From a virus (lineage: Duplodnaviria > Heunggongvirae > Uroviricota > Caudoviricetes): a DNA stretch of 35,177 nucleotides. The stretch is taken from IMG/VR virus record IMGVR_UViG_2690316321_000006; one strand, written 5' to 3'. The position numbers and the translations under genes were made by a program. Position 1 is the first letter of the stretch. Every line of letters begins with the position of its first letter. Shown piece by piece: positions 4,831 to 29,673 of this stretch. The notes under the pieces are model-generated. The model did not search any database, had not been told where the DNA came from, and saw only the letters and a list, made by a program, of their open reading frames with translations.

Positions 4831-4863
4831 CCGCTTGTAACCCGGATGATTACAAGCGAAGCC
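4831..4863. promoter_or_regulatory. Late-promoter activator site (Ogr-type dyad) in the divergent P/O control region
   Basis: CCGCTTGTA-N-TTACAAGCGAAGCC; TGT at 4836-4838 and ACA at 4852-4854 separated by 13 nt; centred about 55 nt from plausible start sites on both sides. Confidence 0.55.
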
Positions 4864-7989: not shown

Positions 7990-8104
7990 AAAGAGTACGG
8001 ATATGCGATGCGCATCACCGTATCGCCTCATCTGAACGCTGGATGCCCCTTCCCCACCAGAGTTAGTGTCTGACCCAACGAAAGAACTTACAGGGGAAAA
8101 TACC

Positions 8105-8341
8105 ATGACTATTCAGGCAGCCAGAACCCGCCCAATGACCGATACCGCTCGCCGCATCAGAGATACCATAGTTAGCGTCGGCGTTCGCAGCACATGGCCG
8201 CTGCGCGATCTGGCCGACTACGCAGATATAGAAATAGTTAACGCTGAATTTATTGTGACACAGATGGAACTGGCCGGTTATCTGAAGAAAACCCACTGGG
8301 GCCACTATATGTTAACCAGAGCGGGTATTGAGGCGGCATAA
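8105..8341 (+). CDS. Small putative winged-helix regulator (PapI/FaeA-like), accessory
   Basis: ATG at 8105 with AGGGGA upstream (track start 8066 is GTG without RBS); C-terminal ELAGYLKKTHWGHYMLT resembles the PapI/FaeA recognition-helix region; not in the P2 L-X interval. Confidence 0.4.
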   Translation: MTIQAARTRPMTDTARRIRDTIVSVGVRSTWPLRDLADYADIEIVNAEFIVTQMELAGYLKKTHWGHYMLTRAGIEAA

Positions 8342-8377
8342 TGAGTTTGAAGGTAGTGTTTGCCTGATAGCCATAAT

Positions 8378-8400
8378 AGCCCGATTCGTCGGGCTGTTTT
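8378..8400. terminator. Bidirectional hairpin terminator between convergent accessory genes
   Basis: agcccga-ttcg-tcgggct followed by gtttt; separates 8105-8341 (+) from 8431-9084 (-). Confidence 0.55.
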
Positions 8401-8430
8401 CATTTGACGCTGACTTACTCTATTCTACAT

Positions 8431-9084
8431 TTAGTCAAGAGCCGACCAATACTCAGACTCTAACCAAGAGCACAGCATTTCAACATTTCTGATAGCTTCG
8501 AATATTTTCTCTTTAGTCGGGGATATTGTAGGTGGGAATAACCACGATTTTTCTTCCTGTTCGGAAGCCAAAAGTAGCTCACACTCCTGAATAAAGTATG
8601 GGCGAGGATATTTTTCCAAGTCATTTTTTGAGTGAGAAATATTAATTGAGGTAAGTTCCTCAGGATGCTGGACACGATTTCTCACCAAGGGAATTTGTTC
8701 AATTATTTCCAAATTTGCAGGACATTTTGCCATTTCCAACTCAATTTTGTTGAAAATTTCACGATAGCCATTAAACCAACCCTTCTTGAAATTTATATCA
8801 GATTTCACGCTATGATATCCTAAGCGATCTACCCACGCCTTCAGGTACAACTGAAGAGAAGACGAAAGCATCGATAATGCATGGTGCCCACAGGTTTCTA
8901 ATCCCGACTTTGCATCTAACCATTCATCTAAAAAAGCTGGTTCATCACTCTCACCATACGGCTGAATATAAGGTTCCACTTCATTCTCAATATCATTCAT
9001 GATGTTAACAAATGGTGCAGCAGCCGTTTCATAGAAATAAGTAACGAATCTTGTGCGCTCTTTAAGAAAAAATTCAATATCCAC
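8431..9084 (-). CDS. Hypothetical 217-aa accessory protein with R-x4-H motif (possible HEPN-like toxin or effector)
   Basis: AT-rich; the track start at 9102 is TTG, the preferred start is GTG at 9084 directly after AGGAGG; contains LVRNRVQHPEEL (R-x4-H); lies downstream of an RHH gene on the same strand. Confidence 0.5.
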   Translation of the reverse strand: MDIEFFLKERTRFVTYFYETAAAPFVNIMNDIENEVEPYIQPYGESDEPAFLDEWLDAKSGLETCGHHALSMLSSSLQLYLKAWVDRLGYHSVKSDINFKKGWFNGYREIFNKIELEMAKCPANLEIIEQIPLVRNRVQHPEELTSINISHSKNDLEKYPRPYFIQECELLLASEQEEKSWLFPPTISPTKEKIFEAIRNVEMLCSWLESEYWSALD

Positions 9085-9185
9085 AACACCTCCTACACAC
9101 AATGTTTAAGTTAATCAGTGCATATCGACTAATCTGGGCTGAACAAATAATCCTAACTTCTTAGCGCTGCTTGATATCTCCGTAA

Positions 9186-9356
9186 TTATCCTTTGGGTTC
9201 AATACCTCGTGACTGAAGTTCCTTACGCAAAACGCGTTTTATCCATGTTGCGAGAGAGGTATCTCCATCTTTACGAGCCTGTTCTTCAAGCTGCTTTCTA
9301 AATTCATGAGCAAGACGAAGTTGGTACTGATCTGTTTTAGCCTTTTCACTTGACAT
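9186..9356 (-). CDS. Ribbon-helix-helix (Arc/CopG-like) DNA-binding protein; putative antitoxin or autoregulator (56 aa, absent from the ORF track)
   Basis: Minus-strand ATG at 9356 to TAA at 9186; translation MSSEKAKTDQYQLRLAHEFRKQLEEQARKDGDTSLATWIKRVLRKELQSRGIEPKG has the beta-strand then two-helix RHH pattern; palindromic GTAATTAC operators overlap its start. Confidence 0.55.
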   Translation of the reverse strand: MSSEKAKTDQYQLRLAHEFRKQLEEQARKDGDTSLATWIKRVLRKELQSRGIEPKG

Positions 9357-9408
9357 TGTAATTACAAAATCCTTAGAATGATGTAGTTGTAATTACATCG
9401 CAATTACG
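9357..9408. promoter_or_regulatory. Operator/promoter region with repeated palindrome TGTAATTACA
   Basis: TGTAATTACA at 9357-9366 and 9388-9397 (31 bp apart) plus a degenerate copy GCAATTACG at 9400-9408; sits between divergent RHH gene and the 9498 ORF. Confidence 0.5.
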
Positions 9409-9497
9409 TGATGTTTTGCAACCCTTAAACGAACGAAGCCCGCAGGTGCTACCAACACCAACGGGCCTCTGACCACAACATTAAAGAGGCTAATGCT

Positions 9498-9704
9498 ATG
9501 GCTACCGCTAATAGTAACATACGCGCACATTCAAAGCTCTACACCTTCCTGAACGCCCGTTCCAACCGCCTGCTGCGCGAGATCCAGCCCCTGCGTCTGG
9601 TGTCTGTACTGGCAACAACTGAAATCGAGGCTCGCGACCTGCTGGCGGGTTTCCCGCTGGTGTTCGTCTCCTGCAAACCGCTGGAGGTGCGCCATGGTGC
9701 CTGA
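9498..9704 (+). CDS. Small protein resembling Icd-like (host cell division inhibitor-like) proteins of P4-type elements
   Basis: ATG at 9498 with AAGAGG 8 nt upstream; 68 aa; motif pattern recalled from P4-like island small ORFs; weak. Confidence 0.4.
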   Translation: MATANSNIRAHSKLYTFLNARSNRLLREIQPLRLVSVLATTEIEARDLLAGFPLVFVSCKPLEVRHGA

Positions 9705-10014
9705 AACCAATATTCTGTCCTCTGAACTGGCGGACGCGATCCGCAAGATGGATATTTCACACCTGAACGCCGACGATACTCTGCTACTGGCCAACAGCAG
9801 CGAAGAGTGCTACGCCGGACTATGTCACGGCCTGCATTTTCTGGGTAAAACCTTCGTCTCCTTTGCCGACAGCAACGTGCTGGAATTCTCCGCTGAAAGC
9901 CTGTGCCAGCTAGGGCATGGCCTGTCGGCTACCGCGCTTCTGCTTCCGGCGCTGATCCAGCTCCAGAAGTCCGCTGAACTGAAAATCATCAATACCGACA
10001 GCGACGAGGCATAG
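9694..10014 (+). CDS. Hypothetical protein (106 aa), accessory
   Basis: ATG at 9694 with GGAGG 6 nt upstream; overlaps the end of the previous ORF (coupled). Confidence 0.45.
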   Translation: MVPETNILSSELADAIRKMDISHLNADDTLLLANSSEECYAGLCHGLHFLGKTFVSFADSNVLEFSAESLCQLGHGLSATALLLPALIQLQKSAELKIINTDSDEA

Positions 10015-10030: not shown

Positions 10031-10064
10031 CCGCTTGTACTGCCCTCAGTTACAAGCGGAAGCC
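10031..10064 (+). promoter_or_regulatory. Late-promoter activator site (Ogr-type dyad) upstream of X
   Basis: CCGCTTGTA-N-TTACAAGCGGAAGCC; TGT 10036-10038, ACA 10052-10054, 13-nt spacer; near-identical flanks to the P/O, V and FI sites. Confidence 0.55.
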
Positions 10065-12037: not shown

Positions 12038-12158
12038 TGAGGATTTAAGCCGCGCACTGCTGGAAACTGAAAACGCGTGGCACCAGTGCGCTGCGCAGGT
12101 GGATATGACGATTAGCTGTCAGGAGCGTATCGATGCACAAAGCGCAGCTCATCCGTGA
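11883..12158 (+). CDS. lysC: o-spanin lipoprotein (LysC / Rz1-like), begins inside lysB in another frame
   Basis: GTG start at 11883 (start uncertain); signal peptide with lipobox LSAC; Pro-rich; embedded then extending past lysB as in P2. Confidence 0.6.
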   Translation: MKINSFVNGLILLCPLILSACTSTPPLPAVRLTVNCPKLTPCQLPALQPQSNEDLSRALLETENAWHQCAAQVDMTISCQERIDAQSAAHP

Positions 12159-12591
12159 ACTGCTGGCCGCCAGCGTCCCGCATCTACAGCAGAACCCGGA
12201 CACGCTGCGGGTCTTTATCAATAAGGGCCGGATCGTCGCCACCGCAGGGCGCAGCACCAGTTTTGAATACCAGTACACGCTGGAACTGTTGATCACCGAC
12301 TACGCCGCCGATCCCGATACACTGATGGTGCCGCTGGTCGGCTGGATGTCGCTTCACCAGCAGGAAGCCTTCGCCAATAGCGACCTGCGCGAGCAGGCGT
12401 TTCAGTTTGAGGCCGAAGCCATCGACCATCAGAGCTACGATATCAGCATCAAACTGGCGCTGACCGAGCGCGTCATTGTTCGCCAGCGCGACGGTAGTCT
12501 GGAAGCAAAGCACTGTAACGACCAGCAGCCAGAAAGCGGTTACAACGGCTGGGAAATCGCCTGTCGCGGTGAAACGATTGTGAGCACCTGA
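12133..12591 (+). CDS. R: Tail completion protein (P2 gpR-like)
   Basis: 152 aa; ATG at 12133 with AGGAGC upstream; P2 order. Confidence 0.8.
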   Translation: MHKAQLIRELLAASVPHLQQNPDTLRVFINKGRIVATAGRSTSFEYQYTLELLITDYAADPDTLMVPLVGWMSLHQQEAFANSDLREQAFQFEAEAIDHQSYDISIKLALTERVIVRQRDGSLEAKHCNDQQPESGYNGWEIACRGETIVST

Positions 12592-13037
12592 TGAGCGACG
12601 ACCTGCAACAACTCCACCGCTGGGCCGATGGCCTGCTCGCAAAGCTCTCCCCGGCAAGCCGAACCCAACTGGCACGGGAAATCGCCCGCAGCCTGCGCCA
12701 GTCGCAAAGCCAGCGAATAACCGCGCAGAAAAACCCGGACGGCTCACCGTTCGCCCCCCGTAAGCTCCAGCTACGCAGTAAAAAAGGAAAGATCCGCCGC
12801 CAGATGTTCCGTAAGCTGCGTACCGCACGCTATATGAAAGGGAAAGGCGATGGGCAGGGAGCAACCATTTCGTTTCTCAGCAGCGTTCGACATATGGCTG
12901 CCGTTCATCAGTATGGCCTGCGCGATCGGGTAAATCGCTACGGGTTGGAGGTGGATTACGCACAAAGGCAGTTGCTGGGGTTTTCGGCGGAGGATGTGCG
13001 AAAAATAGAGGCGCTAATCGTTCACTTCCTGACTTGA
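12591..13037 (+). CDS. S: Tail completion / virion morphogenesis protein (P2 gpS-like)
   Basis: 148 aa; one-nucleotide TGATG overlap with R. Confidence 0.8.
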   Translation: MSDDLQQLHRWADGLLAKLSPASRTQLAREIARSLRQSQSQRITAQKNPDGSPFAPRKLQLRSKKGKIRRQMFRKLRTARYMKGKGDGQGATISFLSSVRHMAAVHQYGLRDRVNRYGLEVDYAQRQLLGFSAEDVRKIEALIVHFLT

Positions 13038-13062
13038 AATGATATCAAAAAATGATATCATC
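13038..13062 (+). promoter_or_regulatory. Putative hicAB operator: two TGATATCA palindromes
   Basis: TGATATCA at 13040-13047 and 13053-13060 in an AT-rich stretch 50 bp upstream of hicA. Confidence 0.5.
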
Positions 13063-13109
13063 ATTATATCTTGGCGGAAGAATAAAATAACTTATGGAAA
13101 ATACCCTGT

Positions 13110-13373
13110 ATGAATACGTTAAGCGCCAAACATAAAAAAACCTTACAAGCTGTTTTTTCTACGCCAACACCTGTCACGCTGGAATGGCGAAAAATAGAAG
13201 CCTTATTTATTGCTTTGGGGGCTATTGCTACGGAAGGAAACGGTTCCCGCGTCAGGTTTGAAATTAATCAGGTTGTGGCTTCATTTCATCGTCCACACCC
13301 GGAAAAAGAAGCGAAAGCCTATCAGGTTCGCGATGCCAGAACATTCCTTGAAGCTGTAGGGGTAACACCATGA
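13110..13373 (+). CDS. hicA: HicA-family mRNA-interferase toxin
   Basis: 87 aa; conserved ...RFEINQVVASFHRPHPEKE... region typical of HicA; followed by overlapping HicB. Confidence 0.7.
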   Translation: MNTLSAKHKKTLQAVFSTPTPVTLEWRKIEALFIALGAIATEGNGSRVRFEINQVVASFHRPHPEKEAKAYQVRDARTFLEAVGVTP

Positions 13374-13705
13374 TGAATACCATGACATATAGAGGCTATG
13401 CCGCAAAAATTGAATACAGCGATGAAGATCAATGCATTGTTGGTCACGTTGCAGGCATTCGGGATGTCATTGGCTTTCATGCCGATAATGTTGCCGATCT
13501 GCGTAAAGCGTTTGAAGAGGCGGTAGACGACTATCTGGCTTACTGCGAGGAACGGGGCCGGGAGCCGTTGCGTCCGGCCAGCGGAAAAATCAGCCTGCGT
13601 ATTCCACCTGAAATTCACTCTGCCATTAACGTTGCGGCAGAAGTCTCCGGTAAAAGCGTTAACCAGTGGATTAACGATACACTGATGAAGGCTGCGCACG
13701 GTTAA
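13370..13705 (+). CDS. hicB: HicB-family antitoxin
   Basis: 111 aa; ATGA overlap with hicA; HicB-like N-terminal domain plus C-terminal RHH-like segment (ISLRIPPEIHSAINVAAEVSGKSVNQWINDTL). Confidence 0.75.
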   Translation: MMNTMTYRGYAAKIEYSDEDQCIVGHVAGIRDVIGFHADNVADLRKAFEEAVDDYLAYCEERGREPLRPASGKISLRIPPEIHSAINVAAEVSGKSVNQWINDTLMKAAHG

Positions 13706-13720
13706 GCTCTTTTTCGTTCA

Positions 13721-13744
13721 ACGCCCCTACTCAGGGGCGTTTTA
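13721..13744 (+). terminator. Rho-independent terminator after hicB
   Basis: acgcccct-actc-aggggcgt followed by ttta. Confidence 0.6.
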
Positions 13745-13775
13745 CTTGTAGCCCATTATCCTACAAGCCTTAGCC
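13742..13775 (+). promoter_or_regulatory. Late-promoter activator site (Ogr-type dyad) upstream of V
   Basis: TTACTTGTA-N-CTACAAGCCTTAGCC; TGT 13747-13749, ACA 13763-13765, 13-nt spacer. Confidence 0.55.
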
Positions 13776-13811: not shown

Positions 13812-14411
13812 ATGAGCGACGCAAACCACCCAGCCAACCTCGCCGAGCTGCACCGGCGCATTGAAAACCTGATCCGTACCGGCACCGTTGAAGAGGTGAA
13901 GGGCGATCGAGTACGCATTCACACTGGTGAACTGACCACCAACTGGATACCGTGGCTGACGCTGCGCGCCGGTGATGCCCGGACGTGGTGGCGACCATCA
14001 ACAGGCGAACAGGTGTTACTGCTCTGTTTAAGCGGTGAGTTAACCACCGCCGTGGCGCTTCCTGCCATTTACTCTGACGCCAACCCCGCCCCGCTGCTGG
14101 ATGAACAGGTTCACCATAGCGTTTACCCCGATGGTGCGGTGATTGAATATGATCCGCGCTCCAGCGCGTTAAAAGCCACCGGCATCAAGACCGCACTGGT
14201 CGAAGCCAGCACCCGCGTCACGCTGGATACACCGCTCGTCGTCTGCACCCAGCATCTGGAAACCGCCACGCTGTCGGTTAAAAAAGGCGGCACGCTTAAA
14301 GGCACTTACACCCACAGCAGCGGCAGTTTTACCTCCAACGGCGTCACCGTCCATACCCACACGCACACAGGCGTAGAGCGCGGCGGTAGCAATACCGGAG
14401 GGCCGCAGTAA
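13812..14411 (+). CDS. V: Baseplate spike / assembly protein V (P2 gpV-like)
   Basis: 199 aa; first gene after the late dyad; P2 order. Confidence 0.85.
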   Translation: MSDANHPANLAELHRRIENLIRTGTVEEVKGDRVRIHTGELTTNWIPWLTLRAGDARTWWRPSTGEQVLLLCLSGELTTAVALPAIYSDANPAPLLDEQVHHSVYPDGAVIEYDPRSSALKATGIKTALVEASTRVTLDTPLVVCTQHLETATLSVKKGGTLKGTYTHSSGSFTSNGVTVHTHTHTGVERGGSNTGGPQ

Positions 14412-18129: not shown

Positions 18130-18833
18130 GCACATTCGCATTTTCCGACGAACCGCAAACCCTGCGCATCTTTAACTACGCGGCAGATACTCAGGAATTT
18201 ATCGGCGTCAGCGACGCCTATATCGCCCCCAACACCGGCTTACCGGAATGCTGTACCACTATCGAACCGCCCGAATGCCAGAGCGGCTTTGCCCTGACAT
18301 TCAACGGAGAAACATGGCTTGCGGTAGAAGATCATCGCGGTAAAACCGCGTTTGATACCGATGCGGGCAGTGAGGTACAGCTTCATCATCTGGGGCCATT
18401 GCCGGATAACGTCACTCTGCTGAAGCCCGATAACGCCTTTGTCCGTTGGGACGGCAAACGCTGGCGGCCTGATATCGAAAAAGCCCGACAGGCAAAGGTG
18501 GCGGAAATAAAGCAGTATCGCGATCGAATCACCGCCGACTACATCATCATCGATAATCACCATTTCCACAGCGACGCTAACAGCCGCATCCAGCAGCTCT
18601 CGCTCACCAAAATGGGCGTGGCTAAACAAATACCGGCAGGCTTAATGTGGCAGACCAAAAATCACAACCTGATTGAACTGACCAACGAAATCGCCGCCCG
18701 GTTTGAAACCGAAACAATGGCGCACGATATGCGCCTGTTCGCCGCTGCCCAGCAGCATATTGCCGCCGTTGAAGCATTGACGGAGGTGCAGGCGGTTATG
18801 GGTTACGACTACTCGTCAGGATGGCAACCATGA
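18126..18833 (+). CDS. G: Tail fibre assembly chaperone (P2 gpG-like)
   Basis: 235 aa; ATGA overlap with H; position after H. Confidence 0.75.
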
Positions 18834-19288
18834 GTCAGGTTTACGCGGCGTTCTACCGTGGCCGGGCTGAACGTTTTTTCAGCCTTGCCCGGCTCTCCGA
18901 CTGGTTGACGCGACAGGTCACGCGCGGCCCTTACTCTCACTGCGAACTGGTCGAATGCCAGCCGGATGGCCTGTTTATCTGTTACTCATCATCGGTACGG
19001 GATAAAGGCGTGCGCAGCAAACGAATGCCGCTGCCGATTGAGAAATGGGATTTACTCCCGATCAACGCCGATCCGCTGGCACTGGAAACCTTTTTCCGTC
19101 AGCACGACGATAAAGGTTACGACTGGCTGGGAGCCATAGGTTTTGTGTTACTCAGTCAGGGCAAACAGGAGCGCCTGTTTTGCAGCGAGTTCTGCGCCGA
19201 ATTTCTGCATCTGCGTGATAGCTGGCGTTATTCACCTAATCTGCTGTATGCGCTGATCTGCAGTCGATCTGGAAAATTGACAATATGA
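18830..19288 (+). CDS. Hypothetical accessory protein (152 aa) with His/Cys motifs, translationally coupled to G and dam
   Basis: ATG at 18830 overlapping G stop (ATGA); motifs YSHCELV and LFCSEFCAEF weakly suggest a permuted papain-like (NlpC/P60 or LRAT-like) fold; occupies the P2 Z/fun position. Confidence 0.5.
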   Translation: MSQVYAAFYRGRAERFFSLARLSDWLTRQVTRGPYSHCELVECQPDGLFICYSSSVRDKGVRSKRMPLPIEKWDLLPINADPLALETFFRQHDDKGYDWLGAIGFVLLSQGKQERLFCSEFCAEFLHLRDSWRYSPNLLYALICSRSGKLTI

Positions 19289-20043
19289 ATACGTTACCCA
19301 TTATTCCGTGGATCGGCGGTAAGCGCAGGCTGGCAAAACACATTCTGCCGCTGTTTCCCAAACACCGTTGCTACGTTGAACCGTTCTGCGGGGCGGCGGC
19401 GTTGTTCTTTATGAAACAGCCCGCACAGGCCGAGGTGCTGAATGATATCAACGGCGACGTTACCAACCTCTACCGCGTACTCCAGCACCATTTAGAAGAG
19501 TTTGTCCGCCAGTTTAAATGGTCGCTGGTCAGCCGCGAAATGTACCGCTGGCTCCAGATCACCCCGGAAGAAACGCTGACCGATATCCAGCGCGCGGCGC
19601 GCTTCTACTACCTGCAAAAGCTGGCATTCGGCGGCAAAGTGGAAAGTCGCACATTCGGTACCGCCACCACCTCACCGCCGCGCCTGAACCTGCTGCGTAT
19701 GGAAGAGGATTTATCCGCCGCCCATCTGCGGCTGGCGCGCGTCTGTATTGAAAATCTGGACTGGGCCGACTGTATTCGCCGCTATGACCGCCCGCATACC
19801 CTATTCTACTGCGACCCTCCATACTGGAAAACCGAAGGCTACGGCGTGCCATTTGGCCTTGAGCAGTACCAGCGAATGGCAGAGCTGGCGCGCACCATGC
19901 AGGGCCGGATGATTATCTCGGTTAATGACATCCCGGAAATGCGCGATATCTTCCACGGCCTGACATTCTCAACGGTAGGGATTCGCTATACCGTAGGCAG
20001 AAAGCCAGCCAGCGCCACATCAGAACTGATTATCCTGAATTAA
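19285..20043 (+). CDS. dam: DNA N6-adenine methyltransferase, Dam family (orphan, no cognate restriction enzyme seen)
   Basis: 252 aa; DPPY catalytic motif (YCDPPYW) and Dam-like N-terminus (IPWIGGKRRL, EPFCGAAALFF); ATGA overlap with the upstream ORF. Confidence 0.85.
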   Translation: MNTLPIIPWIGGKRRLAKHILPLFPKHRCYVEPFCGAAALFFMKQPAQAEVLNDINGDVTNLYRVLQHHLEEFVRQFKWSLVSREMYRWLQITPEETLTDIQRAARFYYLQKLAFGGKVESRTFGTATTSPPRLNLLRMEEDLSAAHLRLARVCIENLDWADCIRRYDRPHTLFYCDPPYWKTEGYGVPFGLEQYQRMAELARTMQGRMIISVNDIPEMRDIFHGLTFSTVGIRYTVGRKPASATSELIILN

Positions 20044-20052
20044 AAACCGCTT

Positions 20053-20085
20053 CTGCTTGTAGTGCCAGTGGTTACAAGTGGAAGC
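20053..20085 (+). promoter_or_regulatory. Late-promoter activator site (Ogr-type dyad) upstream of FI
   Basis: CTGCTTGTA-N-TTACAAGTGGAAGCC; TGT 20058-20060, ACA 20074-20076, 13-nt spacer. Confidence 0.55.
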
Positions 20086-25573: not shown

Positions 25574-26676
25574 CGATGTTAAACGCACTCTTAAACGCCC
25601 AGCCGCAACCGGAGTACAGCGTGGTGCTGAACGGTAAGGACATTACGCGGAATCTGGACAACCGCTTAATCAGCCTGCGTATCACCGACAACCGGGGCTT
25701 TGAGGCCGACGAACTGCAGCTCGAACTGGACGACAGCGACGGCCTGCTGGCGTTTCCGGCAAAGGGCGAAAAGCTAACGGTTTCTCTGGGCTGGAAGGGT
25801 GACGGCGTGATGCACCAGAATGTCTTCACAGTGGACGAACTGGAGCACAGCGGCGCACCGGACGTACTCAGCCTCCGCGCCCGCAGCGCCGATTTCCGCG
25901 ATTCGCTGAACGTTAAACGGGAACAGAGCTACCATGATGTGACGCTGGGCGCGATTGTGCAAACCGTGGCGGCACGTCATAAGCTGGAATCAACCGTCAG
26001 CGGCGAGCTGGCTGGGATCGCCATTGAGCACGTTGACCAGACTAACGAGTCTGATGCGTCCTTCCTAACCCGGCTGGCGCAAATGCACGGCGCTATCGCC
26101 TGCGTGAAAAATGATGCTCTGCTGCTGATGCCGACAGGTTCCGGTAAAAGCGCCAGCGGCAAGCCGCTGCCGGTCGCAACCATTAACCGCGAGGACGGCG
26201 ACAGCCACCGGTTCAGCATCGCGGACAGGGAAGCCTATACCGGCGTAACGGCCTACTGGCTGGATACGCGGCAGGCTAAAAAGCAGTCAACTGACGTGAA
26301 GCGCAAGACACGGAAAAACCTTCCGCAAACGCAACCAACAGAATCGCCGACGTCAGACACCTCATTCAACGCCGATAACGTGATGGTCGGCGAAGAGGGA
26401 AATATCAAGGTGCTGCGCCACACCTATGCCAACAAAAATAACGCCTACAGAGCGGCAGAAAGCGCGTGGGAGCTATTACAGCGAGGCGCGGCAACGTTCA
26501 GCCTGAATCTTGCGCGTGGACGGCCCGATTTGTTCCCGGAATTGCCGGTGCCGGTGCAGGTGAAGGGGTTTAAGGCTGAGATTGATGGCACCGCGTGGGT
26601 GATTACGCGGTGCGTGCATACGTTGGATGGCGGTACTGGTTATGTCACCGCATTAGAAATGGAATTAAGTTTATAG
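25570..26676 (+). CDS. D: Tail protein D (P2 gpD-like)
   Basis: 368 aa; ATGA overlap with U; last late gene as in P2. Confidence 0.85.
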   Translation: MTMLNALLNAQPQPEYSVVLNGKDITRNLDNRLISLRITDNRGFEADELQLELDDSDGLLAFPAKGEKLTVSLGWKGDGVMHQNVFTVDELEHSGAPDVLSLRARSADFRDSLNVKREQSYHDVTLGAIVQTVAARHKLESTVSGELAGIAIEHVDQTNESDASFLTRLAQMHGAIACVKNDALLLMPTGSGKSASGKPLPVATINREDGDSHRFSIADREAYTGVTAYWLDTRQAKKQSTDVKRKTRKNLPQTQPTESPTSDTSFNADNVMVGEEGNIKVLRHTYANKNNAYRAAESAWELLQRGAATFSLNLARGRPDLFPELPVPVQVKGFKAEIDGTAWVITRCVHTLDGGTGYVTALEMELSL

Positions 26677-27927
26677 TAATCCTAAATGAACCATAATAGC
26701 CATTAAGATCATTCCACCACCTAAGGCTGTCGGAATCCAGCATAAGCATTGAAAGAAAAGAAGGTAACGATTTAACATGACCTGATTTTTGTCTAAATTA
26801 TCCTTTGCATTGCATACTAATTTTTTCAAATCTTCTGTATAACCTACAGATTTTTTCACTAATGGGGAAAATATAATATCTTTAGCATCACAAATCATCC
26901 TAAACTGTGTGTATTGACTTCTTACAATAAAAAACATAATTATCGACGTGAGCAATACACCTAAAAAAACCACTAACATTTCCGGCAGGGTATTTAATTT
27001 TATCATGCCAAAAGTAGCAACCAAAGAAACAGGAATACCTAAAAGCTTAGCTATCATGTCTGACATTATTTTTGAAAAACGCTCAGCTAAATTAGCTTCT
27101 GCCTCTGCCACTTCCTTTCTTACTTTATGAAATGAAAAACCACTAAGATATACACCGAGGTTATTATGGTATAGTTTTAGAAATTCATCCCACTCACAGA
27201 ATAAAAAATGAAACTGTTTCTTTACATCGATTGATTCAAGAAAATCGACCACCGTATTAATGAAAATCCCTTTTCGCTCAAAATAATTATCATCCGTTAT
27301 AGCTTTTTTTTCATCAGAAAAAGATTCGATGATTTTTAAATCCTTAATACCTGTTAAAAGAAGTGAATAATCAACATTAGTTTCAATAATTAAAGGTAAT
27401 GACTTAGCATTAGTATTTTTCAAGAAAACTAACTTATGGCATACATCATCACTTTTACTATTGCTGTAGTGTGCAACTTTTGATAGACATAAAATAAAAT
27501 CACAAAGATTCTTTAAAACAGATAGTTCTGGTATTTTTGCTAATCCCTCAACCATTCCTTCATTAAAATAAAAATCTTCCTCAACCAAGTAAAAAGACTT
27601 TCTTAAAATACCTCTATTTAACATCGGAGACTTTTGAATTAGATCTTTAATATCGATAAAAAATGACTCACTGGCTCCAGTTGATATAGAGATTGTCAGT
27701 GTTATTGATGTTCCTTTAGCGGGAAGGCTATCATCAACATCTATATCCACATCATCAATGACAATCTCTTCAATTTCTCCCCACGCGGTATGAGGTTGCA
27801 AAGAAACTAAGAGTTCATATATATGAGCATCATAAGAAATAGTTGCTGAAAAACGATTATTAATAGCATCAAATTTAGGACGCCCTACATATCTGAAAAG
27901 CTCAACAACCGTTTCAAAACATGACAT
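26671..27927 (-). CDS. Accessory protein with large soluble N-terminal domain and 2-3 C-terminal transmembrane helices (candidate membrane effector); third gene of AT-rich operon
   Basis: Preferred ATG at 27927 (track start 27936 is TTG); strongly AT-rich; hydrophobic segments LVVFLGVLLTSIIMFFIV and LLFFQCLCWIPTALGGGMILMAIMVHLGLL at the C-terminus; its stop overlaps the D stop convergently by 6 bp. Confidence 0.6.
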   Translation of the reverse strand: MSCFETVVELFRYVGRPKFDAINNRFSATISYDAHIYELLVSLQPHTAWGEIEEIVIDDVDIDVDDSLPAKGTSITLTISISTGASESFFIDIKDLIQKSPMLNRGILRKSFYLVEEDFYFNEGMVEGLAKIPELSVLKNLCDFILCLSKVAHYSNSKSDDVCHKLVFLKNTNAKSLPLIIETNVDYSLLLTGIKDLKIIESFSDEKKAITDDNYFERKGIFINTVVDFLESIDVKKQFHFLFCEWDEFLKLYHNNLGVYLSGFSFHKVRKEVAEAEANLAERFSKIMSDMIAKLLGIPVSLVATFGMIKLNTLPEMLVVFLGVLLTSIIMFFIVRSQYTQFRMICDAKDIIFSPLVKKSVGYTEDLKKLVCNAKDNLDKNQVMLNRYLLFFQCLCWIPTALGGGMILMAIMVHLGLL

Positions 27928-27985
27928 ATTAAGCAACCTTATTTTTCGCTATTTCTTTCTTTTATTAACTCATCAAGCAATTGAG

Positions 27986-29086
27986 CTATTTCACTTTTTT
28001 CTCAGGAGTAATCCGAGTAAAAGTTAAATGTCCAGTTTTCTTATTATAGCATATCTCATTATCAAGAGTATTGCCTAGTAAACTAGATTTAAACTCAAAA
28101 TTAACATTATCACTTGTATATTTAATATTTCTGTTTTTCTTAACTACTGATTTGCTTACCCTAAATTCCACAGGCACACGAATACTTTCACTATTCAAAT
28201 GAGCATATAATTCTTCTGACAATTTATCTTTAATGTCATCTTCTAAATTAACCATATGCTTCGCTGCCATCTCACTAACAACAGAAAGCTTAGCTGAAAT
28301 GTTATTCTCAGAACAATCGAATAAATACTCAATAATTTCATTTTTAAATTTACGGGCATTATCCTTTAATTCTTGATGATTTCTGAAGAAGTTAAAAGAT
28401 TCATTAATTAAATTACTCGTAGCTTTAGTTGATGTATTACCTTTATCACAACCTAAGGCAGTAATGAAATACCCTGAAGTTGTCTGGTTAGAACTGGGAC
28501 TAACAAAACTTAAATAATTAACATCCTGTCTTTCATTCTCATCAGCGGAAATATATTTATCATACAAATCATAGTTTATTCGTGCCGCCTGATTTAGTTT
28601 TGCCAGATCAAGATGCTCTAACTCCTTTGGTTCTAATTTATCACTAATAACTATACCTTCCTTTTGCTTAATCATTGCAATAAGAAAGTAACGCACGGAT
28701 TTACTGATATAATCAGCAAAAAGAAGTAATCCTCCTGATGCAGCAGGTCGATCCTTTGCCTCAATATATAACTGATGCATAACATTTTTTGATAATCCTA
28801 TAAACAATTCATCGTCTAACTTCTTGGATGTATCATTCCGATATTTATCAAATGCCGCTGGAAAAGGCCCCCTACGTGTTTCATCTAAATTAAATATACC
28901 ATAATGCGAGCTATTAGATTTTTTACCATACAATGCGGCTATACTGGACACTAGTTTAATTACGATTTCATTATTTCGGTCAAGAACCGTATCACGGCGA
29001 CTATATGGTTTTGAGTGATCGAAATCTTTATGTTGCTCTTTTATCAACCTATGAACAACCACGCACCCTAATGAAATATCAGACAT
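27986..29086 (-). CDS. NdpA/YejK-like nucleoid-associated-protein-family member (accessory); second gene of AT-rich operon
   Basis: 366 aa; collinear similarity to E. coli YejK as recalled from memory (MSDISLGCVVVHRLIKEQ vs MSLDINQIALHQLIKRDEQ; ASGGLLLFADY vs ADGGFVLFCHY; YLSFV vs YLTFL); RBS TGAGG upstream. Confidence 0.65.
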   Translation of the reverse strand: MSDISLGCVVVHRLIKEQHKDFDHSKPYSRRDTVLDRNNEIVIKLVSSIAALYGKKSNSSHYGIFNLDETRRGPFPAAFDKYRNDTSKKLDDELFIGLSKNVMHQLYIEAKDRPAASGGLLLFADYISKSVRYFLIAMIKQKEGIVISDKLEPKELEHLDLAKLNQAARINYDLYDKYISADENERQDVNYLSFVSPSSNQTTSGYFITALGCDKGNTSTKATSNLINESFNFFRNHQELKDNARKFKNEIIEYLFDCSENNISAKLSVVSEMAAKHMVNLEDDIKDKLSEELYAHLNSESIRVPVEFRVSKSVVKKNRNIKYTSDNVNFEFKSSLLGNTLDNEICYNKKTGHLTFTRITPEKKVK

Positions 29087-29100
29087 ATAACCTCACAATC

Positions 29101-29673
29101 CTATGGTAAATAAAAATCTTTCGCTTTATTTTCTAAATCAGTCCATCTACTGCTAATATTCTTTTCCTTACAAACAAGAAAAGCCTGATACCCTAAAAAC
29201 TCTTTCGTTTTCTTTAAATTATCTTCAGTAACATGACTCTTTTCTTCATTGTTGTTTTTCCATCCACAGAAATATATTCTGTCTGCTTCTTCAACATCCC
29301 TGACATGCACAGCAATATCAGTATATTTTGCCTTATTCTTAACAGTAACCGATGGAGGGATTTTCCCATCAAAATCTTCAAAAAACTTACTTGTTCTAAA
29401 TGGATTGGCAGGGTCATATTTCAAACCTAGAGCCTTGCATAATTCTTTATAAGTCTCACTTCCCAGATTAGGATTTATGACGAATCCCTTCTCGACTTTT
29501 AGACGAAAGCAAAGATTAGCGCCTAATGCTCCGAAAAGAAGCTCAAACGGTTTTCCATCAATAAAGAAAAATACATCAAAATGTAAATTATTGTGTCTGT
29601 ATGGGAATTTAACCCTATCCAATTTTTGCTCTGTCATGTTCCTGTAAAGAGCAACCAGATTATTCAACTTCAT
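29101..29673 (-). CDS. Hypothetical 190-aa protein; first gene of AT-rich accessory operon
   Basis: ATG at 29673 with GGAGG 5 nt upstream; AT-rich; no recognisable motif; 14-bp gap to the next gene. Confidence 0.55.
   Translation of the reverse strand: MKLNNLVALYRNMTEQKLDRVKFPYRHNNLHFDVFFFIDGKPFELLFGALGANLCFRLKVEKGFVINPNLGSETYKELCKALGLKYDPANPFRTSKFFEDFDGKIPPSVTVKNKAKYTDIAVHVRDVEEADRIYFCGWKNNNEEKSHVTEDNLKKTKEFLGYQAFLVCKEKNISSRWTDLENKAKDFYLP

Follow-up and report, generated by a model that had tools for sequence, protein, structure and literature searches.

The stretch of DNA analyzed here, which we refer to as the window, comprises 35,177 nucleotides of a P2-like prophage (IMG/VR record IMGVR_UViG_2690316321_000006). 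At positions 13038-13744, between the tail-completion gene S and the baseplate gene V, the window carries a two-gene cassette. We conclude, with a probability of about 0.85, that this cassette is a type II HicA/HicB toxin-antitoxin module of Class 4, which sits as exchangeable cargo between S and V and works by the mechanism described below. An earlier note, made from the letters alone, had proposed such a module at this site, and every element of the cassette that it listed between S and V was found in place. Profile, fold and comparative evidence agree on a HicA/HicB module carried as cargo. The feature is therefore real and rightly identified, and it is ordinary in kind. Only two of its properties go beyond routine annotation, namely a G-S-R motif in HicA and a conserved two-box operator.

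The hicA gene (13110-13373, plus strand) encodes a protein of 87 aa and the hicB gene (13370-13705, plus strand) one of 111 aa. The two reading frames overlap by 4 nt, in the sequence ATGA. HicA scored 33.5 bits against PF07927 (cut-off 27, E 4.7e-8, residues 26-75) and matched phrog_8887, annotated as 'toxin', at 1.7e-32. An identical protein, WP_001094738.1, is called a HicA family toxin in RefSeq. The AlphaFold model of HicA had a predicted local distance difference test (pLDDT) value of 92.8, with helices at residues 26-35 and 70-82 and strands at 39-42, 47-52 and 55-60. It thus shows an alpha-beta-beta-beta-alpha core, which is double-stranded-RNA-binding-like, together with an extra N-terminal helix at residues 6-16. 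The four best fold matches of this model in the PDB were all HicA proteins, from Burkholderia pseudomallei (6g26_E and 6g26_F), Thermus thermophilus (1whz) and Escherichia coli (6hpb_A), with probabilities of 0.92-0.99 and target-normalised template modelling (TM) scores of 0.63-0.74.

HicB scored 66 bits against PF05534 (cut-off 21) and matched phrog_9151, 'HicB-like antitoxin', at 8.3e-48 over residues 1-110; RefSeq names an identical protein a HicB family member. Both proteins of the cassette are thus above the Pfam cut-offs for the families to which the earlier note had assigned them. The HicB model was of moderate confidence (pLDDT 71), with strands at residues 3-7, 10-17, 22-27 and 36-38 and a helix at 41-61. 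In this model the N-terminal domain is a partial RNase-H-like fold (beta-beta-beta-alpha) of the toxin-binding type. Its best PDB fold matches were again HicB proteins (6g26_B, 2yzt, 6u0i, 2dsy, 6hpb_B and 4p78). The ribbon-helix-helix-like C-terminus that had been proposed for HicB was also recovered, as evidenced by a match to Pfam TacA1 (24 bits, cut-off 21), a weak match to Arc with an Arc-type alignment of residues 73-107, and a fold match to the AtaR ribbon-helix-helix 6gts_C (probability 0.99, root-mean-square deviation 1.4 Å, 31% identity over 39 residues). The strand segment that precedes helices 80-93 and 97-110 was modelled at low confidence, as expected of a ribbon that forms only in the dimer.

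In all 80 loci compared, which came from different species, hicB lay directly downstream of hicA, and the same held in every other context examined. The hicAB order and the ribbon-helix-helix at the HicB C-terminus fit Class 4 in the scheme of Gerdes (PMC10865869). The toxin-first order had been taken as specific to HicAB, a claim that did not survive: Gerdes reported in 2024 that hicBA is the commonest gene order (PMC10865869). The Class 4 systems HicAB of B. pseudomallei (6G26) and HicAB3 of Yersinia pestis (4P78) share with the cassette the hicA-hicB order and the two-domain plan of HicB. Class 4 modules also have palindromic operators that overlap the promoter, as the putative operator does here, and the main operator of Y. 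pestis overlaps the -10 element (PMC11594946). Although 6G26 and 4P78 were among the best fold matches, no similarity to them was found by sequence or profile search. The HicA of the cassette differs from these examples in its 87-aa length, its extra N-terminal helix, G-S-R in place of G-S-H and an invariant H-R-P-H-P block.

HicAB of E. coli K-12 (6HPB) was also compared. Its HicA has the same fold (TM-score 0.74, target-normalised), and the P-R-H-P/E motif of K-12 HicA appears to match R-P-H63-P...E67 here. However, K-12 HicA has 58 aa and a catalytic His23, compared with 87 aa and G-S-R in the cassette, and a profile-profile comparison with K-12 HicA gave no significant alignment. K-12 HicB carries a helix-turn-helix instead of a ribbon-helix-helix, and the K-12 operon has two promoters (PMC11594946). 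The same HicA subfamily was found at 40-45% identity (tblastn 1e-16 to 1e-10) in the Burkholderia phage ST79, which is P2-like (Peduoviridae), and in Ralstonia phages such as Dina. ST79 shows the same G-S-R and H-R-P-H-P motifs and the same gene order. Its pair, however, lies beside the portal gene, in the cos-proximal hotspot, and not between S and V; the C-terminus of its HicB is longer, and upstream of the genes it has GGATATCA and TGATAGCA 13 bp apart, without the TGATATCA pair described below. HicAB pairs in prophages are already on record (PMC4553209), and HicAB2 of the Pseudomonas putida prophage P1 is a prophage-borne functional toxin-antitoxin pair (PMC12894663). The characterized HicAB of Sinorhizobium meliloti was considered as a proxy and rejected. 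It is the canonical chromosomal pair SMc04441/SMc04269, not the cassette-like pSymA copy, and its data are therefore not directly transferable.

The motif G45-S46-R47-V-R49-F sets this HicA apart. Arg47 was invariant in all 45 homologues compared, as were H60-R61-P62-H63, K66 and E67. In the HicA toxins studied so far, a catalytic histidine follows the Gly-Ser turn, namely His23 in E. coli, His24 in B. pseudomallei and His28 in Y. pestis HicA3 (PMC11594946). The hydrophobic/polar alternation of the strand sets R47 and R49 opposite H23 and K25 of E. coli. When the subfamily profile was compared by hhalign with E. coli HicA, or with a profile built from relatives of the latter, the profiles were too narrow on both sides to yield a usable alignment, and the equivalence of Arg47 to the catalytic histidine therefore rests on the motif and on strand-pattern reasoning. 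The invariant H60 and H63 are close by, and in the model hairpin H60 would be the cross-strand neighbor of R47. We regard the apparent replacement of the catalytic histidine by arginine as no more than a lead. Searches with the patterns FHRPHPxKE and EGxGSRVRF retrieved genomes of at least 589 species from many phyla, and our literature search found no functional study of the G-S-R subfamily. A very widespread subfamily thus appears to do without the histidine thought to be needed for HicA catalysis and has no solved structure that matches it by sequence. Toxicity assays and mutagenesis of a G-S-R HicA would tell something new about the HicA mechanism.

The promoter scan placed a sigma-70-like hicAB promoter at 13034-13061 on the plus strand. 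It consists of a -35 hexamer TTGAAA (13034-13039), a 16-nt spacer and an extended -10 element TGATATCAT (TGnTATCAT, 13053-13061), and it has 10 of the 12 consensus matches along with the TG extension. The TGA stop codon of gpS lies inside the -35 hexamer. The two TGATATCA palindromes anticipated in the promoter are present at 13040-13047 and 13053-13060, where they cover the spacer and the -10 element. Placed 13 bp apart, they form a perfect 9+9 inverted repeat (13039-13047 / 13053-13061) of the form ATGATATCA-N5-TGATATCAT, which we mark as the putative HicB operator (13039-13061). TGATATCA occurs three times in the whole window against 0.43 expected, and none of 100 shuffles reached three copies. 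The third copy is at 19443, inside a D12-class methylase gene.

Homologues of hicA are likewise preceded by the string TTGA-(2 nt)-TGATATCA-N5-TGATATCAT in an ssrA island of Yersinia, in the hycI-fhlA gap of Atlantibacter and at dusA-adjacent sites of Citrobacter and Kluyvera, and the DNA around the string is unrelated between these sites. Both boxes and their spacing were kept in loci of Yersinia, Atlantibacter, Citrobacter, Kluyvera, Enterobacter, Rahnella, Coxiellaceae and Legionella, and there was one box substitution each in Ewingella and Legionella. Most of the 80 loci had two 8-bp boxes 13 bp apart over the -10 element, with no more than 4 of the 16 box positions mismatched in 51 of them. 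Across phyla the box sequences co-varied by taxon and the spacing stayed the same. Grouped by the taxon labels in the database record titles, the pair TGATATCA / TGATATCA was found in Enterobacterales, Coxiellaceae and Legionella records, TGATAGCA / TGCTATCA in Chloroflexi-type, Cytophagia and Poribacteria records, TGCTATCA / TGATTGCA in Geobacterales and Desulfuromonadales records, and TGGTTCCA / TGATACCA in several betaproteobacterial records. This recurrence of the two-box layout, both at chromosomal sites that are otherwise unrelated and in phyla far apart, makes it very probable that the layout is the HicB operator. Such a layout would be the signature of an operator bound by ribbon-helix-helix dimers, which block RNA polymerase. 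It offers a ready-made, testable model of DNA recognition by HicB.

An intrinsic terminator follows hicB at 13720-13745 on the plus strand. It has a 9-bp stem with 6 G-C pairs and a 4-nt loop (13720-13741) and then a T run. It is the sole predicted stop for both hicAB and the upstream late transcription of X to S. The promoter and terminator scan predicted no terminator between S and hicA; transcripts started at the late X promoter therefore probably continue through hicAB as far as 13741. Other phages with HicAB had the same terminator stem and a changed loop, and downstream of the chromosomal hicAB homologues the terminator was not present. Of the elements of this self-contained cassette, the promoter and operator travel with the gene pair, and the terminator is common to the phage copies only. 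Directly after the terminator comes the late-promoter activator dyad of the V operon, TTGTA-N11-TACAA (13746-13766, plus strand), which is of the Ogr/Delta type and forms the right boundary of the slot; the succession of terminator and V late promoter was thus as first proposed. The dyad has four copies in the window, before O (4835-4855), X (10035-10055), V (13746-13766) and FI (20057-20077), and these are presumably binding sites of an Ogr/Delta-type late activator. The arms of the V dyad were conserved and its spacer was variable in all cargo variants. Its center is 56 bp before the V ATG, which is the geometry of the annotated pV site and transcription start of P2.

We next consider the site itself. 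S and V had been taken to be adjacent in P2, and this proved wrong. In the P2 record the two genes are separated by a terminator, by orf30, which is non-essential and on the reverse strand, and by the pV activator site. P2 orf30 occupies the same place as the cassette, after S and immediately before the pV site, and its product gave no Pfam or PADLOC match. The arrangements differ in that P2 has a terminator directly after S followed by a single reverse-strand gene, whereas here the cargo is in the forward direction and the terminator comes after it. Published work counts the orf30 locus among the three horizontal-transfer regions of P2-like phages (PMC3091744), and recent surveys of defence hotspots mention sites within P2 tail genes (PMC13586616).

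Searches of the phage collection for near and distant DNA, with the cassette or the whole S-V region as query, found nothing. This prophage lineage is not among the deposited phages, and the comparisons were therefore drawn from E. coli genomes, metagenome contigs and IMG/VR. The cassette was found in 1 of 5426 complete E. coli genomes, where it was 100% identical over 723 bp. Three sibling prophages, with gpS 91% and gpV 98-99% identical, carried other genes in the slot, namely AbiTii (two genomes) or a homologue of PD-Lambda-3_A. The latter, in E. coli GMF054 (L003 3490-3945), stands alone between S and V. Metagenome and IMG/VR relatives had HicAB alleles in the slot at 94% and 87% HicA identity. 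Further contents were another AbiTii, a Gp49/HI1420 toxin-antitoxin pair, a RelE/helix-turn-helix pair and small genes with no assigned function, and in one relative the slot was empty, with a junction of 79 bp. The S-V junctions of the relatives thus bear out the earlier view that the cassette is not a fixed part of the backbone, since siblings carry AbiTii, PD-Lambda-3_A, other pairs or nothing. The last ~12 codons of gpS co-varied with the type of cargo, and similarity resumed at the dyad before V, indicating that the cargo is exchanged by recombination within the interval from the 3' end of S to the V promoter. In this lineage the slot behaves like a small hotspot for defence and toxin-antitoxin genes, and HicAB is one more documented occupant of the slot that has been studied least among the three classical ones of P2-like phages. 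On a P2-like viral contig of high G+C (0.68), the slot held an aerolysin gene (Pfam 7e-68) and a transposase-like open reading frame (ORF), and it therefore also carries virulence-type cargo; the aerolysin-carrying loci were L031 4438-7893 and L032 4438-7281.

Several comparisons bear on the maintenance and movement of the cassette. The ratio of nonsynonymous to synonymous substitution rates (dN/dS) between phage copies was 0.07-0.09 for hicA and 0.04-0.06 for hicB, and the values for gpS and gpV were similar. These ratios indicate that both genes are under strong purifying selection and that the toxin gene is maintained, not decaying. The cassette was 100% identical in the window and in the E. 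coli region L001, and the flanking genes showed a synonymous divergence (dS) of 0.05-0.07. In the relative L025 the cassette had a dS of 0.6-0.7, compared with 0.18 for gpV. This cassette is much more diverged than gpV, and alleles are therefore shuffled among related phages. In the sub-lineage L004-L007, cassette divergence was about that of gpS and gpV. The closest non-phage homologues were solitary two-gene insertions between core genes, in the hycI-fhlA gap, beside dusA and in an ssrA island. The Yersinia enterocolitica homologue (L008 3306-10264; 76% HicA identity) lies in this ssrA-adjacent island, immediately behind an integrase. A second integrase is found some 2.2 kb beyond it, together with AlpA, Ash and primase genes, which resemble a P4-like satellite.

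The mechanism we propose is inferred from what is known of HicAB pairs in general. A hicA-hicB transcript would be made from the cassette promoter in the lysogen, and the ATGA overlap would couple translation of hicB to that of hicA. HicB would bind and block HicA with its N-terminal domain, and ribbon-helix-helix dimers of HicB would occupy both TGATATCA boxes, repressing the promoter. Should HicB be lost faster than it is replaced, free HicA would cleave RNA independently of the ribosome and arrest the cell. During lytic growth, late transcription from the X promoter would read through the cassette and stop at the terminator on its far side.

A number of observations weigh against this account. 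The E-values of the Foldseek matches were weak (0.03-0.4), because the domains are small. Neither phmmer nor profile hmmsearch against the PDB found any solved HicA or HicB by sequence; the matches were chance ones alone, such as the CBP KIX domain and RNA polymerase II. Since these searches were empty even with profiles, the subfamily is remote from every crystallized HicAB. With an invariant arginine at the histidine position, the catalytic mechanism of the studied HicA toxins is not simply transferable. The literature searched held no reports of toxicity, neutralisation, RNase activity or DNA binding for the G-S-R subfamily, and neither HicA nor HicB matched any PADLOC model at E <= 0.01. 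The late read-through is deduced solely from the lack of a predicted terminator. Finally, HicAB2 of P. putida, the one prophage HicAB to have been examined directly for both roles, had no effect on prophage stability or on defence against the phages tried (PMC12894663).

The biological role, which could be defence, addiction or selfish persistence, is the least certain part of our reading. The earlier note had such modules act as addiction or abortive-infection determinants, which is plausible. We tentatively regard a lysogen-expressed abortive-infection or competition module as the most likely role, at a little below even odds, because in relatives AbiTii, PD-Lambda-3_A and other toxin-antitoxin pairs take up the same slot. 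Location is all that suggests defence here. Gerdes proposes defence for HicA in general (PMC10865869), but a review calls a defence role of HicAB unproven (PMC11594946). A cassette that is mainly addictive or selfish, whose loss is punished by a longer-lived HicA and which gives no protection against other phages, is the main alternative, to which we give roughly one chance in three. The solitary two-gene insertions outside phages are the pattern of a self-spreading cassette, the identical cassette with differing flanks and the diverged cassette of L025 point to independent movement, and PADLOC does not list the pair as a defence system. Addiction has also classically been proposed for toxin-antitoxin pairs of prophages (PMC4553209, PMC11594946). 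However, the other occupants of the slot include known defence genes. Integrated P2-like prophages are rarely lost, which leaves little for post-segregational killing to act on. Moreover, HicAB2 of P. putida was without effect on the stability of its prophage (PMC12894663).

Other readings concern the nature of the proteins or the history of the site. We think it rather unlikely that the G-S-R HicA represents a mechanistically distinct branch of the family, in which Arg47 and Arg49 together with a relocated His60 or His63 would catalyze, and that the cassette is also wired into the late operon. Under that proposal the RNA specificity might differ from that of canonical HicA, the -35 hexamer of the cassette would supply the stop codon of gpS, and the terminator on the hicB side would end the X-to-S transcript, so that the cassette, besides being an abortive-infection module expressed in the lysogen, would form a structural part of late transcription. 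Still less probable is a HicA-like protein that is catalytically dead or repurposed, with the pair acting as an antitoxin decoy or a regulator, for example a phage HicB that neutralizes a HicA-based defence of the host. The invariant Arg47 at the G-S-H position would suit such a protein, and phages do acquire antitoxins or antitoxin mimics (PMC11594946). Nevertheless, HicA was as strongly constrained as HicB (dN/dS 0.07-0.09), the invariant charged and histidine block (R47, R49, H60, R61, H63, K66 and E67) suggests a working active site, the pair was kept together in 80 of 80 genomes, mostly non-phage, and the tight autorepression architecture is typical of a module with a real toxin. That the cassette is a fixed backbone feature of the lineage, not acquired cargo, is very improbable. 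The parallel divergence of cassette, gpS and gpV in L004-L007 speaks for vertical inheritance for some time, but siblings with 91-99% identical gpS and gpV carry other genes at the site, the cassette has a low G+C content, and the same cassette and promoter occur in non-phage sites. We rejected this reading given the varied cargo and the empty 79-bp junction in relatives.

The surroundings of the cassette are those of a P2-like prophage, with portal and terminase genes near 2-4.8 kb at one end and an integrase at the right end. The window lies beside genes matching yfgH and yfgI of the near-identical E. coli region L001. Upstream of the cassette are gpR (12133-12591; Pfam P2_Phage_GpR) and gpS, the tail-completion protein and left flank (12591-13037, plus strand; Pfam Phage_tail_S 2.8e-37, TIGR01635 5e-38). 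The right flank is gpV, the baseplate spike (13812-14411, plus strand; TIGR01644 6e-55; Pfam Phage_base_V, Phage_spike and Apex). The G+C content was 0.35-0.46 over 13000-13500, compared with 0.55-0.63 in the flanks. We saw no direct or inverted repeats of the transposon or integron type flanking the cassette, and no Rfam families or tRNAs in the whole window. An antisense ORF at 13322-13699 was treated as a shadow of hicB. In L025 (4001-4444), gpS has a premature stop after 25 codons and the rest aligns, which points to a sequencing error or a defective prophage.

A 15-nt near-repeat, identical at 14 of 15 positions, links the end of gpS with hicA (GCGAAAAATAGAGGC at 12998-13012 and GCGAAAAATAGAAGC at 13187-13201). 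It encodes RKIEAL at the gpS C-terminus and in helix 1 of HicA. We considered it as a recombination footprint and rejected this, since RKIE also ends the gpS of the relative L027, which carries other cargo, and the xIExL pattern is found in several other gpS proteins too. The near-repeat is probably a coincidence.

Three other regions of the prophage carry accessory genes. In the L-X gap (8066-10014), both strands have ORFs (91, 223, 87 and 106 aa), none of which matched Pfam or PADLOC. The same place in the near-identical E. coli prophage (L001 15581-17424) is taken up by genes for a Doc-family toxin and a YlcI/YnfO protein, along with a small upstream gene. The L-X gap is a second variable cargo slot, and the presence of the dyad before X implies that transcription is restarted from a late promoter once this cargo has been passed. 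Between the tail-fibre genes and the sheath gene, at the position of the P2 Z/fun slot, 18821-20043 encodes a D12-class adenine methyltransferase (PADLOC MTase_II 2.5e-115) and an unannotated ORF of 155 aa. Lastly, tail gene D and the regulatory region are separated by three co-oriented genes on the minus strand (26671-29673), whose products are a 420-aa protein that matched no family, an NA37 nucleoid-associated protein and a DUF6037 protein; these genes may form an uncharacterized accessory or defence operon.

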